From UHGV virus genome UHGV-0069511: DNA of 31,514 nt, one strand, 5' to 3'. The position numbers and the translations under genes are program-made. Origin of the DNA: a virus. How positions within the stretch are numbered: the stretch's first letter is position 1; every line of letters begins with the position of its first letter. The notes under the pieces are model-generated. The model had not been told where the DNA came from. It saw nothing but the letters and a program-made list of their open reading frames with translations, and ran no database searches. Below, piece after piece: positions 4,265 through 29,147 of this stretch.

Positions 4265-5473
4265 CTACTTTGTAGCGTTCACCAGCAAAGAAATACATGA
4301 ATTATGATTAGCGTTTATATAGTCCGCATACCACTGCATCATCTCCCTACGTCCTTCCAAATACAACGCATGGTTATACGTCCCACGAATCGCATTTTTA
4401 TCAACGTGAGCCAGCTGGGTTTCAATCCACGCTGTATTGAAACCTTCCTCATGCAAAATCGTACTCATCGTGTGACGGAAACCATGCCCCGTTACCCTCC
4501 CCGTATATCCAATCCGCTTAAAAACCTGATTAATACTCGCTTCACTCATCGTCTTGCGGGGATCATTACGTCCCGGGAACACCAGTGGATATTGCCCTGA
4601 CATCACTTTGAGTTGCTGTACGATTTCCAGCGCTTGGGTAGAGAGGGGGACAAGGTGAGGCCGTTTCATCTTCATACGCTCGGCAGGTATCTCCCACACC
4701 GCTTTTTCAAGATCAAACTCACTCCAGAAAGCACCTCGGAGTTCGCCAGTGCGAACTCCCGTGAGGATCAGCAGACGTGCCGCAAGAACAACTAACGGGC
4801 TTCCTGTGTAGCCTGCGAGAGCTTTAAAAAAGTCTGGTAACTCCTCAACAGTAAGGAAGGGATAATGCTTCGATTCATGCCCTGACATCGCGCTGGTAAG
4901 ATCCGCTGCAGGATTGTATTCCGCACGACCGGTTACGATGGCGTAACGAAAGACTTCGCTGCAACGCTGGCGAACCTTCTTGGCCTTCTCTGTCGCGCCA
5001 CGGCTTTCAATTCGACGCAGCACATTAAGCAGAACCAGCGGTTTGATTTCATTCACCGGTTGTTGGCCAATATAGGGAAAAATATCTTTATTAAAGGCTT
5101 CGATAATGTCCGAGGCATAACCTTCTGACCATCGGCTCACCTTCGTTCCATGCCATTCAAGTGCCACAGCCTGAAACGTATTATTTAGCTGCACATCTCG
5201 AACCAGCTTTTCTTCTTTCTTGGCAAGCGATGGATCGATACCTTCGGCAAGCTTTTTCTTGGCGTCGTCACGCAGTGCCCTCGCTTGTGCAAGGGACACT
5301 GCCGGATAGACACCAAAGGCCATACGCTTCTCTTTTCCATTGAAGCGATATTTCATCCGCCAGTATCTGGAACCAGAGGGAACAACCTCAAGATACAAAC
5401 CAGCACCATCTGCCAGCTTATAGGCTTTCTCTCTGGGTTTAGCTGCGTCTACCTGTCGCGCATTAAGTTTCAT
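4265..5473 (-). CDS. int: Tyrosine recombinase/integrase, P4 (IntS/IntA) family
   Basis: ORF-track start at 5512 is GTG; ATG at 5473 gives N-terminus 'MKLNARQVDAAKP...YKLADGAGLYLEV' typical of P4-family integrases, with SD-like GGGAGA upstream. C-terminal catalytic region contains 'HGFRHT' and 'LAH...Y'. Confidence 0.9.
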   Translation of the reverse strand: MKLNARQVDAAKPREKAYKLADGAGLYLEVVPSGSRYWRMKYRFNGKEKRMAFGVYPAVSLAQARALRDDAKKKLAEGIDPSLAKKEEKLVRDVQLNNTFQAVALEWHGTKVSRWSEGYASDIIEAFNKDIFPYIGQQPVNEIKPLVLLNVLRRIESRGATEKAKKVRQRCSEVFRYAIVTGRAEYNPAADLTSAMSGHESKHYPFLTVEELPDFFKALAGYTGSPLVVLAARLLILTGVRTGELRGAFWSEFDLEKAVWEIPAERMKMKRPHLVPLSTQALEIVQQLKVMSGQYPLVFPGRNDPRKTMSEASINQVFKRIGYTGRVTGHGFRHTMSTILHEEGFNTAWIETQLAHVDKNAIRGTYNHALYLEGRREMMQWYADYINANHNSCISLLVNATK

Positions 5474-5636
5474 TGGGGGCATCTCCCTAGACCGAACACA
5501 AAATGCCCCCACTTATGCCCCCAACTGCGACTTGATTTCGGTTGAGTCTAGTTGATAACAGGAGATAAGATACGGGCCAGAAACCGCAGTATACGAGCTT
5601 TTAGTTGATTTCGGTAGACTTGGGAAGAGTTTGAAA

Positions 5637-5966: not shown

Positions 5967-8045
5967 TTACTTATTAACCCAACCTGTAGCATTTGTGTTG
6001 CTTTCCTTTATATAAAGTACTGTATTTCCACCTCCATCAGAACGAGTGTAAATAGAACCAACTGGTGCTCCAACTCCGCTAGATGTTGGGTTGCCTTCTT
6101 GCCCAAATATCACAAGTGAGCTTTTATCTGTAGCTTGATTATTCTGTGTGGCTGATGTTCCAAATGAAACATTCCCTATAAATGACACGCTCTTACAGCT
6201 TGATGTAGCAAATATACCAACTGATGGTTTATTATTTGCAACGCCATCACGAATTTGATTTGAACTAACAATTACATTTTCTGCACCAGAGTCAATTCGT
6301 ATGCCATTATGGTTATTATCTGCGGTAGAAACCCCAACTATAATGTTTGATTGAATAGTAACATTTGAATATTTACCATTAATATGAATCCCATGCAGGG
6401 AAATATTTCTAAAGATGTTGCTAGAAATTACAACATCATGCGAAAAACCAGACCCTATAAATTCTTCTGCATTAGTTTCAGAAATCCATAAAGAACTTGA
6501 TGTTCCTGAATCGTATTCATTATTAGAGATGATTGATTTGTTAATAAAATCACCTTTGAAAAAACCGATTCCGCCTCTTGCTGTGTTTCCAGTGACAGTT
6601 AGTCCTGAAACCCATCTTGCGTCTACTGCATATGATTGAGACTCTGTAATAAAAATGGAATTGTTGGATATTACGATATCTTCATGAAATGCATCTGATG
6701 TATCTGTATATGGATATGTAGGTGCAGCCAGAAGAATCGGGGATCTAACGCCTTCAAAATAATTGCCAACAATGCGCCCCCTCCTTGCCCCCTGTGGTTT
6801 TGATGATGATGGGAATGGGGTTACATGAACTCCTCGCGCGGTACTGTTATAGAAAGAGCATCCGCTAACCACCCAATCATACCAGTTGAAAACCCTTACC
6901 CCGGCAAAGAGCATTCCATCGAACCTGCAGTTTATGACCCTTATATTTTTGTCCTGATTCCCATATGAATTAGCATGGTTCCCAACCCCCACCCCCCACG
7001 CCCCAAACCCAGTGGTGGTATTTTGTGGATTTGAACCAAAATAACAGTTATCAACAAGAACATTGATGTTTGGGTAATAATCGCCAAGAGATTCAATCCC
7101 CGGATCTAACTGGATCGCTTCTGAATAATTTCGGTTGGAAAGTGGTTTGAAGCCAAGAAACTTACAGTCTCTTATAATCACCCCTTGCCCGTCAGCAATA
7201 TCTACAGCATGAAAATCGACTACATCAAGAAATGTTACTCCAACAATAGAAAGATTTCTTGGTGAGGAGGCTGCAATGATGTCAAAAGGATCTGTAGGGT
7301 GGTCTTGTCCTCCTCCATCTAGTATTCCGCCTGTTATTTTAATGTTAGTGCCAGTATTAGGGCTTATTCTCAGCATGACGTCATTAGAAAAATTACGTTT
7401 AATGGTTACGCCATCAGTCATCTTTAGGTGAGTATTTGATTTTATTTGCAACTCAGAAAGCAAAGTATATATGCCTGGTAGTGAAAACTGTAGTGTACCT
7501 CCTCCAATGCTATATATTGCATCTAGCGCAAATTGCAGAGCTACTTTATTGTCAGCATTCGATGGATGAGCACCGAAGTCAAGAACATCAATGATTTGTT
7601 GGTTCTTTTGGTGTTGAGTTTGATTTGCTGCTCCGGGGAATGGTTGTTTCACCGACACTAATTCATCCCCATCACCATCATCAAAGGATGCCAACCTCTT
7701 CTGAAACTGATCAGGGTCATACTTCAGCACATTAGGAAAATAAAACTGCTGCGCACCATACGCATCATAAACCGCCATAGAATGGCCTTGCACAGTTACG
7801 AACTTGGCAATCTGTCCGTTATATACAGGGTAACCAGCAGCGTTAATGATGATTGGTTGAGAAACAGGAACGTGAGAACCATCTTCGTTCTCAACATAGA
7901 CCTGAATCTGGTTTTCAGGATTTACCGGGTCAGTGTCAATTTTACCGATATAAATTTTGCCATTGGCTACGGCTTTAAAAGAACGAGCCATAGTGAAGAG
8001 TTGCGAAGGCATACTCACTACAACATTGGCTGTAATGTCTGTCAT
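5967..8045 (-). CDS. Tailspike protein (P22 gp9-like N-terminal head-binding domain, divergent beta-helix receptor-binding domain)
   Basis: N-terminus '[43 protein letters not shown]...VLKYDPDQF' is the conserved P22/Sf6 tailspike head-binding domain; remainder is Gly/Asn/Ser-rich with beta-helix-like repeats. Confidence 0.9.
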
Positions 8046-8100
8046 TTAATTTGCTCCAGATACAATGAATCGCCGCAGCGTGGCCACGGTGAATTTTGGG

Positions 8101-8128
8101 CATAAAAAAACCCAGCCGAAGCTGGGTC
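8101..8128 (-). terminator. Rho-independent terminator between ant and tailspike
   Basis: Minus-strand transcript 'ACCCAGC-UUCG-GCUGGGU' followed by UUUUUUUAUG (plus-strand A-run 8104-8110, stem 8111-8126). Confidence 0.65.
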
Positions 8129-8145
8129 GTTGCGTTGGTTATCTG

Positions 8146-9069
8146 TCAGTAGTTATGTACTGAAGGAGGTAATTCTTTGTTCTTAAGTCTTATCCATGCT
8201 GAAAGGTTTGTTGGTCCGTCTGGCTCATTAATATCAACATCTCGTGTATGGTTGATTAAAACATCTCTCGCCATATCGATAATACGGGAGAACTCATAAC
8301 CGCAGTCATGACATCTGCCGGAATAGTTCGATTGAATTTGTTTTAGCGCCGGATACAATTCGCGGAATAATGCCTGTGAGCGGTTGGCATAATCCCATAG
8401 CCATACAAGGCTGTTTGCTTCTTTTGCAGAAAGCTCGTTGGTTTTCTTCTCTTGTTTGCCAATGAACTCACCTTCAAGCGGAACTCGAGCTGCAAGTGAC
8501 AGTGCTTCGGTAAACTGCTCCTCACTGATTTCTTTGTATGAACATCCAAAATGGGATTTCAGTGACGACCACATGGTGATCATCGCCTTAGCCTGTTTTT
8601 CCTTTGGCAGAGACTGACCGCGACTCATGACGAGTTGTTTAATGGCTTCCTGCTGTTCAGTGGTGATTTTACCCGGCAACGCCTTTTTAGCTTTGCGTGG
8701 GTTAACTACATGACCTTTAGTCCAGTACTCGTATAGCACATCGTCACACTCTTCCTGATACTGGATTACCTTGTCGCGGATTTCAGGACGGACTTTGTTT
8801 GGCTGAATGCTTGAAAGCCAAGCCGCAAACTTACGAAAGGCAAGGCATATCATTAACTGTTTACCGCCAGCAGAAGGTATTTCGATTTCCGAAATACCTT
8901 TGACAAATCTCTGTTTTAATTTAACAAATTGAGCAGCCCAAACCATACCCATGCCTTCTACAACGGGTTTCATAGGAACGTAAGGTTCATTGTTAATGCT
9001 GACCAAAAAGAGATTTGTTCCGTGGAATGGAACGTTGATTGTATGTTCTGCAATTGCTACACTCGTCAT
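8146..9069 (-). CDS. ant: Antirepressor Ant
   Basis: 307 aa, position downstream of arc in immI; N-terminus resembles phage antirepressor family proteins. Confidence 0.8.
   Translation of the reverse strand: MTSVAIAEHTINVPFHGTNLFLVSINNEPYVPMKPVVEGMGMVWAAQFVKLKQRFVKGISEIEIPSAGGKQLMICLAFRKFAAWLSSIQPNKVRPEIRDKVIQYQEECDDVLYEYWTKGHVVNPRKAKKALPGKITTEQQEAIKQLVMSRGQSLPKEKQAKAMITMWSSLKSHFGCSYKEISEEQFTEALSLAARVPLEGEFIGKQEKKTNELSAKEANSLVWLWDYANRSQALFRELYPALKQIQSNYSGRCHDCGYEFSRIIDMARDVLINHTRDVDINEPDGPTNLSAWIRLKNKELPPSVHNY
9035..9063 (+). promoter_or_regulatory. Candidate Psar promoter inside the 5' end of ant
   Basis: -35 'TTGATT' (9035-9040), 17-nt spacer, -10 'TACACT' (9058-9063) on the plus strand, antisense to ant. 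Confidence 0.4.
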
Positions 9070-9143
9070 GTCGTTAATTCCTATGCGTGGTTTTACGATA
9101 CCGAAGCCCTGACTGTTACCGCAGTTGGGGCTTCACTGTTTTT
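9068..9143 (+). ncRNA. sar: sar-like antisense RNA covering the ant translation start
   Basis: Predicted start just downstream of the -10 element; plus-strand hairpin GAAGCCC(9103-9109)/GGGCTTC(9128-9134) followed by 'CTGTTTTTG'. Length of about 75 nt is in line with the 68-69 nt P22 sar RNA. Ends are approximate. Confidence 0.4.
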
Positions 9144-9354
9144 GTAAGTCACTGTAGTTATAAAACCACTGACCACTCATTCTTGCTTTGATTGACTCTA
9201 CTGAATCACGGCAAGGAATGATTCCACCTGACATCATTCTGATCTCCGTAAATTCACCGCTCCTTACCGACTCAATGCCATTAACGTTAACTAAAGATTT
9301 ACCTCTACCAAGTGCATTCTCATAGCCAATCTCATCAACCTCAATAAACCTCAT
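9133..9354 (-). CDS. Hypothetical 73-aa protein inserted between arc and ant
   Basis: ATG at 9354 overlaps the arc stop as ATGA; SD-like GAGG upstream. No recognisable motif. P22 has no gene here as far as I recall. Confidence 0.4.
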   Translation of the reverse strand: MRFIEVDEIGYENALGRGKSLVNVNGIESVRSGEFTEIRMMSGGIIPCRDSVESIKARMSGQWFYNYSDLQKQ

Positions 9355-28991: not shown

Positions 28992-29067
28992 TGGTGCTGG
29001 TTAACGGACTTGAACCGCTACCCATTCGCTTACAAGGCGACTGCTCTACCATTGGAGCTAAACCAGC
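28992..29067 (-). tRNA. tRNA-Thr (anticodon UGU)
   Basis: Manual fold of the reverse complement: 7-bp acceptor stem GCTGGTT/AACCAGC, D-arm GCTC/GAGC, anticodon loop CTTGTAA, T-loop TTCAAGT, encoded CCA end. Confidence 0.6.
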
Positions 29068-29072
29068 ATATT

Positions 29073-29147
29073 TGGCGGGACAGCGTGGACTCGAACCACG
29101 ATAAGAAGGTTAACAGCCTTCCGTAATGACCTTTATACGACTGACCC
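29073..29147 (-). tRNA. tRNA-Asn (anticodon GUU), slightly aberrant
   Basis: Manual fold: perfect anticodon stem GAAGG/CCTTC with loop CTGTTAA, T-arm CGTGG-TTCGAGT-CCACG, CCA end; one acceptor-stem mismatch and a 3-bp D-stem. Confidence 0.45.

Follow-up and report, generated by a model that had tools for sequence, protein, structure and literature searches.

UHGV virus genome UHGV-0069511, analysed here over its whole 31,514 nucleotides (nt; hereafter the window), is a P22-like (Lederbergvirus-type) prophage of Escherichia coli, and its positions 8100-11200 are 99.9% identical to three complete E. coli chromosomes. The window carries an immI region of the P22 type in which a small open reading frame (ORF) of 73 codons, here called ORF73, lies between arc and the antirepressor gene ant and touches the gene for the antisense RNA sar. 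The immI region of P22 is a textbook regulatory circuit, of which Arc, Mnt and sar are model systems; its genes mnt, arc, ant and sar were reportedly described by Sauer et al. in 1983. The features of the region are listed below in window coordinates.

8146-9069, minus strand: ant, antirepressor gene, 307 amino acids (aa); Pfam P22_AR_N 136 bits, P22_AR_C 98.5 bits; PHROG 245, anti-repressor Ant
9035-9063, plus strand: Psar, candidate promoter inside the 5′ end of ant, in the P22 register
9070-9143, plus strand: sar antisense RNA, about 70 nt, from Rfam match and fold, with exact ends inferred from the P22 annotation
9103-9134, plus strand: sar terminator hairpin, 14 bp stem and 4-nt loop, with T-run TTTTT at 9139-9143
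9133-9354, minus strand: ORF73, 73 codons, ATG 9354-9352, TGA 9135-9133
9363-9370, minus strand: Shine-Dalgarno-like sequence of ORF73, GAGAGGGG, 8 nt 5′ of the ATG, within the R-E-G codons of arc
9351-9509, minus strand: arc, 52 aa; Pfam Arc 94 bits
9526-9548: operator Omnt, transferred from the P22 annotation
9552-9572: operator Oarc, transferred from the P22 annotation
9577-9549, minus strand: promoter Pant, from a promoter scan
9544-9572, plus strand: promoter Pmnt, from a promoter scan
9600-9854, plus strand: mnt, 84 aa; Pfam Arc 93.7 bits, Repressor_Mnt 49 bits

A P22-type immI region with an additional gene

All Pfam families of the P22-type immI (Arc, Repressor_Mnt, P22_AR_N and P22_AR_C) scored above their cut-offs. 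By its sequence, the region is a canonical P22-type immI switch, made up of Mnt and Omnt, Arc and Oarc, Pant, ant, and sar lying over the ant ribosome-binding site. An earlier annotation of this DNA, made from its letters without database searches (the sequence-only reading), had recognized Arc, Mnt and both operators, and the Pfam matches and the 95.6% identity of the mnt-arc intergenic region to P22 bear this out. The P22 reference was record BK000583, from which the operator positions were carried over through a MAFFT alignment with the window; this alignment misplaced the sar segment, and identities there were taken from segment-wise BLAST and a short alignment.

Gene order, gene orientation, the register of Psar and the terminator hairpin are the same as in P22, and arc is about 90% identical (89.8% over its first 147 nt). 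Over the 5′ half of sar and the N-terminus of ant the allele is not that of P22, and Arc ends in DSLKREGITV, a type tied to the presence of a gene downstream of arc, in place of the KKEGRIGA of P22. The principal difference is in the arc-ant interval. Only 4 nt separate the P22 arc stop codon from the sar hairpin, with no ORF between them, in keeping with the contrast to P22 that the sequence-only reading had drawn; in the window, a 73-codon gene stands there, within an arc-ant interval of 281 nt (9070-9350), one less than the 282 bp originally counted.

Two further differences from P22 concern mnt and its operator. The core of Omnt, GGGTCCACCGTGGACCC, departs from the AGGTCCACCGTGGACCT of P22 by a symmetrical change at the outermost position of each half-site, and the Mnt protein differs from that of P22, with mnt DNA approximately 82% identical.

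Junctions and coding potential of ORF73

ORF73 is joined to arc as had been read from the letters, its ATG overlapping the arc TGA (9353-9351) as ATGA at 9354-9351. The GAGAGGGG sequence in front of it also precedes every one of the small ORFs that we found in the same position in related loci, and which we refer to below as cargos. At the other end of the gene, the TGA contributes the first two bases of the hairpin on the mRNA strand, and the closing codons, AAA CAG, read on the opposite strand as the U-run of the sar terminator. The overlap of ORF73 with sar that had been proposed is present at the sar 3′ end and terminator (approximately 9133-9143), where it takes in the stop and roughly the last three codons; it does not reach the main part of sar, the one that base-pairs with the ribosome-binding site of ant. 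The ant gene has a Shine-Dalgarno sequence of its own (AGGA), which lies with the ATG 63 nt downstream of the ORF73 stop. No promoter-like site was found on the minus strand between 9133 and 9509, nor a sense-strand terminator after ORF73.

Intact copies of ORF73 number approximately 70 overall and include 18 phage loci besides the window, with seven distinct DNA sequences in all. The close copies have 15 variable sites, a pooled ratio of non-synonymous to synonymous change (dN/dS) of about 0.35 and conservative replacements (R/K, V/I, N/D, A/S, F/L). Against its one distant relative, an 84-aa homologue described below as ORF84, the proportions of changed synonymous and non-synonymous sites are 0.61 (pS) and 0.21 (pN), giving a dN/dS of 0.19, and the differences fall 18/14/31 at codon positions 1/2/3. 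Together with the start codon and the ribosome-binding site, these patterns indicate that ORF73 is a real protein-coding gene under purifying selection, and its junction with arc indicates translational coupling to that gene.

Three variant forms show that ORF73 is occasionally damaged in nature. One (P0004) has lost its stop codon and reads through the hairpin to a length of 90 aa; the other two (P0006 and P0007) are a 45-aa form with an in-frame deletion of 28 codons and a 48-aa truncation.

The sar antisense RNA and its candidate promoter

The promoter-like element that had been noted on the plus strand inside the 5′ end of ant is present, with a -35 element TTGATT (9035-9040), a 17-nt spacer and a -10 element TACACT (9058-9063) that stops 3 nt short of the ant ATG complement. 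This register is exactly that of the annotated Psar of P22 (1437-1465 in locus L001). The generic promoter scan missed the element because it matches the consensus at just 8 of 12 positions.

The hairpin and U-tract downstream, which had been likened to P22 sar, belong to a plus-strand segment, 9071-9137, that matches the Rfam sar family RF00262 over the whole model (77.7 bits, gathering score 43; E 8e-15). The segment folds into two stem-loops at -28.3 kcal/mol (z = -5.2 relative to shuffled sequences). It starts at 9070/9071, adjoining the ant ATG (9069-9067, minus strand); its 5′ stem-loop holds the complement of the ant Shine-Dalgarno sequence, and its 3′ stem-loop is the terminator. With its Rfam score, its antisense position and its two stem-loops, sar looks functional in the window.

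The terminator hairpin is 100% identical to that of P22 and still 90.6% identical in a divergent locus (L020), and it was found in 833 of 5426 complete E. coli genomes, as well as 59 phage records. All seven loci that carry ORF73 or ORF84 and were scored (L002, L003, L006, L007, L009, L019 and L020) matched the Rfam sar model, at 58.8-87.7 bits. When the 35 distinct 5′ parts of sar drawn from 140 loci were folded singly, every one closed a stem from its first nucleotide with differing stem sequences, and the retention of the same stem-loop by such varied sequences amounts to compensatory change. RNAalifold, run on a MAFFT alignment of 12 sar variants, recovered just the invariant terminator stem.

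Family and predicted fold of the ORF73 protein

ORF73 is a full-length member of PHROG 11805, a hypothetical family with no function assigned, and has already been deposited: in Salmonella phage Emek it is orf73, whereas the entries for Escherichia phage vB_EcoP-611R6 and for RefSeq E. coli genomes call it a hypothetical protein. Among the 5426 complete E. coli genomes, 51 carry it, in every case at full length and adjoining the arc gene, and it is found in 16 IMG/VR contigs. Its share of sar-bearing loci is approximately 6-7% (51 of 833 hairpin-bearing E. coli genomes; 8 of 120 IMG/VR loci among the matches listed).

The family is very narrow. A word-indexed protein search returned seven ORF73 clusters; the five full-length ones share 90% or more identity with the query, and the remaining two represent truncated or deleted forms. 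An exhaustive HMMER search of 1.84 billion representatives yielded ORF84 (P0008) as the sole true distant relative, so that the family forms two clusters at 50% identity in that collection. ORF84 is 67% identical to ORF73 with an 11-residue insertion, and it lies on a short metagenomic contig (L020) that preserves the order mnt, arc, ORF, hairpin, ant, with a GTGA overlap. A further HMMER match, the 541-aa repeat protein P0009, was set aside as spurious, as it aligns solely through a repeated GQWSYSY motif. A scan of a genome-contig collection with one genome per species gave no relative, its representatives evidently being without this prophage.

The AlphaFold2 model of ORF73, built from just six sequences, is compact, with a mean predicted local distance difference test score (pLDDT) of 78 and a predicted template modelling score (pTM) of 0.66. 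The product is predicted to be a small beta-barrel plus a helix, weakly resembling FlbD and RemA. Its best matches in BFVD, a collection of predicted viral structures, are small proteins of phages that carry the FlbD-type annotation ‘flagellar and swarming motility protein’ (E 2.3e-4; TM-score 0.69/0.78; 30% identity), query and targets both being predictions. In sequence, no Pfam family matched ORF73 at E <= 0.1; at relaxed thresholds, FlbD/SwrD (PF06289) was the sole family touched by both ORF73 and ORF84, in the same register, with scores of 12.5 bits (E 0.11) and 14.0 bits (E 0.038) below the 24.7-bit cut-off. Foldseek found nothing significant for ORF73 in the PDB, and no solved FlbD structure was among the PDB matches; a profile search of PDB sequences gave one match at chance level (E 0.095).

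ORF73 differs from FlbD/SwrD proteins and from the RemA/LytTR-like folds in its sub-threshold scores, in its acidity (isoelectric point, pI, 5.3) and in its context, which is never a flagellar operon and always the mnt-arc-ORF-sar-ant series of a P22-like phage. For these reasons we call it a small beta fold that is FlbD/RemA-like, without assigning it to either family, and consider DNA binding unlikely. A reading as a DNA-binding protein of the RemA/LytTR kind was down-weighted, since the protein is acidic and the scores weak, with neither a clear fold match nor a basic surface. PADLOC defence profiles matched neither ORF73 nor its neighbours.

A slot for alternative genes between arc and sar

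The position of ORF73 is shared by other genes. We classified the ORF ending at the hairpin in each IMG/VR locus with the hairpin pattern, 120 loci among the matches listed, to which the counts below refer.

66 of 120: slot empty, arc abutting the hairpin (mostly P22 type)
22 of 120: CxFC(G/H) zinc-ribbon ORFs, 60-74 aa
8 of 120: ORF73
5 of 120: 57-aa ORF (ORF57)
3 of 120: 89-aa ORF (ORF89), predicted membrane helix plus coiled coil
12 of 120: no ORF of at least 30 aa in the slot
4 of 120: upstream sequence too short to classify

Roughly a third of these loci (38 of 120) thus hold a small ORF in the slot. The commonest occupants are the zinc-ribbon ORFs, with the pattern CxFC(G/H)...CxxC (L060, L030, L140, L051 and L023, with 17 further IMG/VR loci). 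The one in L060 is a ClpX-type zinc finger by Pfam zf-C4_ClpX (43 bits against 27; E 4e-11), and others reach the same family below threshold and are connected with each other through PHROGs 7150 and 5259. Such cargos may mimic the N-terminal domain of ClpX as free-standing proteins, expressed with Arc and Ant. A 57-aa ORF also fills the arc-sar slot of phage phiv205-1.

Unrelated as the cargos are, their junctions are the same to the base. On the left, Arc ends in every occupied slot with DSLKREG(I/V)x(V/A/I) and its stop, encoded by AAGAGAGAGGGG...GGT(A/G)TGA, and the ATG or GTG of the cargo overlaps the arc TGA. On the right, the cargo stop TGA always stands at position -1 of the hairpin GAAGCCCC, preceded by AAA and then CAG, AGT, CGT or TGT, the opposite strand of which is the sar terminator U-run. 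Because the final codons encode this U-run, unrelated cargos all end in K-Q, K-S, K-R or K-C. The right-hand end of the slot is accordingly under a three-way coding constraint, serving as the tail of the cargo protein, as its stop codon and as the sar terminator of the opposite strand.

We found no description of the arc-sar slot, of ORF73 or of phage FlbD-like proteins in the open-access literature searched. The parts of immI and sar are textbook material; what we did not find described is a fixed slot with alternative cargos whose shared junctions double as the sar terminator.

Several loci of the wider set deserve mention in their own right. In four of them (L044, L067, L108 and L120), 33 nt separate arc from the hairpin and encode a 12-codon remnant, VIRLDAAKKSKQ and a stop, which is the 57-aa cargo ORF less an in-frame internal segment between two LDA repeats, showing that a cargo can be lost with both junctions left intact. 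Phage CUS-3 (L023, CP000711), which has been stated to apparently lack arc (PMC2629481), has on its minus strand an unannotated arc at approximately 2037-2177 and, overlapping it, an unannotated 67-aa Cys-rich ORF at 1837-2040; both lie, with the sar hairpin, in the record feature ‘bsq2; boundary sequence’. The CUS-3 record and the published statement appear to need correction. Lastly, Escherichia phage PhiR12_1 (L024, PV340549) carries at 860-2336 a complete module of mnt, arc, sar hairpin and ant among lambda-type tail genes, the tail tip assembly proteins K and I lying to one side and L to the other, so the immI module is not confined to P22-like podoviruses.

Independent assortment of cargo, arc and ant

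ORF73 is 95-99% identical across loci whose neighbouring sequences cannot be aligned. In vB_EcoP-611R6, L007 and L020, the match on the arc side is limited to the last 46-62 nt of arc; on the other side, the sar 5′ half and the ant 5′ end are unmatched in most loci, with the hairpin itself still 90.6-100% identical. The antirepressor downstream in L007 has an unrelated N-terminus, of BRO-N type by eye alone. Altogether, three types of arc and five of the ant N-terminus accompany ORF73 in different loci, and the same holds of varied neighbours for the other cargos. These combinations show that, among the sequences compared, cargo type, arc allele and ant allele assort independently. That ORF84 is found with a far more diverged arc suggests that the occupied arrangement is of long standing.

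Comparison with known systems

The closest described counterparts of ORF73 are orf73 of Emek, in full vB_SemP_Emek, and URC09203 of vB_EcoP-611R6 (PHROG 11805), which share 90-92% aa identity with it, the position in the series arc-ORF-sar-ant and the ATGA overlap. The surrounding arc, mnt and ant alleles are different: the ant 5′ region is unlike that of the window in both phages, and the arc of vB_EcoP-611R6 aligns over its last 62 nt only.

The immI region of phage P1 (c4, icd, ant1/ant2) offers a formal parallel, in that an ORF of 73 codons lies just upstream of the antirepressor in an operon under the control of an antisense RNA. The P1 gene icd differs in overlapping ant1 and in being itself the target of c4, whereas ORF73 overlaps arc, is 63 nt away from an ant gene with its own Shine-Dalgarno sequence, and is accompanied by an antisense RNA that targets the ant ribosome-binding site. 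Homology to P1 Icd, prompted by the equal length of 73 codons, was rejected (BLASTP E 15).

The arc-ant-mnt region of the window stands in the ‘ant moron’ position of P22-like phages, between gene 16 and the tailspike gene, a place of rapid gene flux where 10 types have been distinguished in 16 genomes (Villafane et al. 2008, PMC2629481). The arc-sar slot resembles the ‘ant moron’ and the boundary sequences of lambdoid phages in that optional genes are swapped between conserved linkers between gene 16 and the tailspike gene, and the hairpin of CUS-3 falls within its ‘bsq2’ boundary sequence. It differs in being a sub-site inside the arc-ant operon with base-precise junctions. The suggestion that ORF73 might be a moron holds in so far as the gene is optional and exchangeable: alternative occupants, at least four others unrelated to it, and empty slots are found among otherwise syntenic relatives. 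As it is coupled to arc and has no promoter or terminator of its own, the cargo is not a classical moron.

Interpretation of ORF73

We consider it likely that ORF73 is an optional accessory gene, an exchangeable cargo of the arc-ant operon that acts on another target and is no part of the switch itself. This is the simplest reading because the slot is often empty, its occupants are mutually unrelated, and they are freely combined with different alleles of arc and ant. ORF73 would be transcribed from Pant together with arc and ant, with its translation coupled to that of arc; its product would come in a burst, upon infection or in the absence of Mnt, before being shut off by Arc. Because sar covers the ant ribosome-binding site only, it should not block ORF73, and read-through within the late operon could also express the gene. 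The protein would most likely bind another protein, as an optional early accessory factor in host takeover, counter-defence or inter-phage competition.

A bolder and more tentative proposal is that the arc 3′ end and the sar terminator together might constitute a dedicated cassette-exchange site that delivers immediate-early effectors, with ORF73 as an inhibitor of FlbD-like fold. Were this so, ORF73, the ClpX-zinc-ribbon mimics, the 57-aa protein and the 89-aa membrane protein would be interchangeable small proteins acting at the very start of infection, and might inhibit host defence, ClpXP adaptor function or rival prophages. The arc-sar slot represents a defined and easily engineered place in which to seek new early phage effectors. 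For the window itself the outcome is modest: the extra ORF is real, was already catalogued as a hypothetical protein and is probably accessory.

A different role for ORF73 would be that of a third component of the immI circuit, modulating the stability, activity or DNA binding of Arc, Ant or Mnt. Its position, the weak RemA/LytTR resemblance and the ClpX-like cargos all suggest such a role, and the sequence-only reading had likewise raised the idea of an added regulator. We regard it as unlikely: P22 and the 66 loci with an empty slot, out of 120 among the matches listed, work without an occupant, and ORF73 pairs with several arc and ant types, the unrelated Ant N-terminus of L007 included, and assorts independently of their alleles. 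The protein is moreover acidic, unlike typical DNA binders, and its structural matches are weak, the FlbD/RemA-like resemblance being below threshold and the Foldseek search of the PDB empty. Still less probable, in our view, is a translated leader in the manner of P1 icd, in which the passage of ribosomes to the foot of the hairpin would open the ant mRNA or compete with sar, and the amino acid sequence would be irrelevant. P1 provides the precedent, as icd, the 73-codon target of c4 in front of ant, is described in its record as ‘apparently required for expression of ant’. In each of the five cargo types the stop codon falls on the hairpin's first bases, and in all arc-abutting loci it is at most 10 nt away, a geometry that is more simply explained by the last codons encoding the sar U-run. 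Insertion of a cargo leaves that geometry unchanged, since the ant ribosome-binding site is 63 nt downstream just as it is from the P22 arc stop, and the purifying selection on the ORF73 protein and its compact predicted fold argue against an irrelevant amino acid sequence. P22 arc-null mutants over-produce Ant, and upstream translation would therefore not be needed for ant expression.

Several points count against the preferred reading of the region, or against ORF73 as a coding gene at all. An antisense ORF of 45 aa with a TTG start runs through it at 9188-9325 on the plus strand, the same frame is also open in L020, and by our own count its peptide shows conservation similar to that of the ORF73 protein (roughly 68% versus 67%). 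The dN/dS values cannot fix the coding strand, because the sense frame and one antisense frame share third codon positions, and the conservation statistics rest on few independent events, the family being so narrow; both sar and the ORF73 protein are, in addition, predictions from sequence. Together with the truncated, deleted and stop-loss variants P0006, P0007 and P0004, the open antisense frame would fit a locus with no functional sense gene, that is, a chance or decaying ORF, or one whose product comes from the plus strand, either the antisense ORF or an RNA formed by read-through of sar. We judge this highly improbable. Five unrelated sequences keep the sense frame open from the arc stop to the TGA of the hairpin, each starting with ATG or GTG behind an identical ribosome-binding site, whereas the antisense ORF has a TTG start only, and transcription could reach it from a promoter solely by passing through a strong terminator. 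The sense frame is likewise favoured by its start codon and ribosome-binding site, by its coupling to arc and by the fold prediction, which is confident and resembles FlbD-like phage proteins; all 51 E. coli copies are full length. The accessory reading remains the one that we prefer.

Flanking genes of the prophage

Outside the immI region, the following genes place the locus within the prophage.

4265-5512, minus strand: integrase gene
5967-8045, minus strand: tailspike gene
11737-13860, minus strand: gene for a gene-16-type DNA transfer protein

Three ORFs follow mnt on the plus strand, at 9904-11712, where P22 has orf59a and sieA. The first encodes 239 aa (phrog_19868; no Pfam match); the second overlaps it and encodes a 182-aa PIN-domain protein (Pfam PIN 40.8 bits; phrog_21691); and the third encodes 161 aa and has no match. 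None of the three matched a PADLOC defence profile. As expression in the lysogen is expected if they are co-transcribed with mnt, these ORFs are candidates for exclusion or defence functions. Two neighbouring tRNA genes lie further away, at 28995-29147 on the minus strand (Rfam tRNA 61.5 and 55.3 bits).

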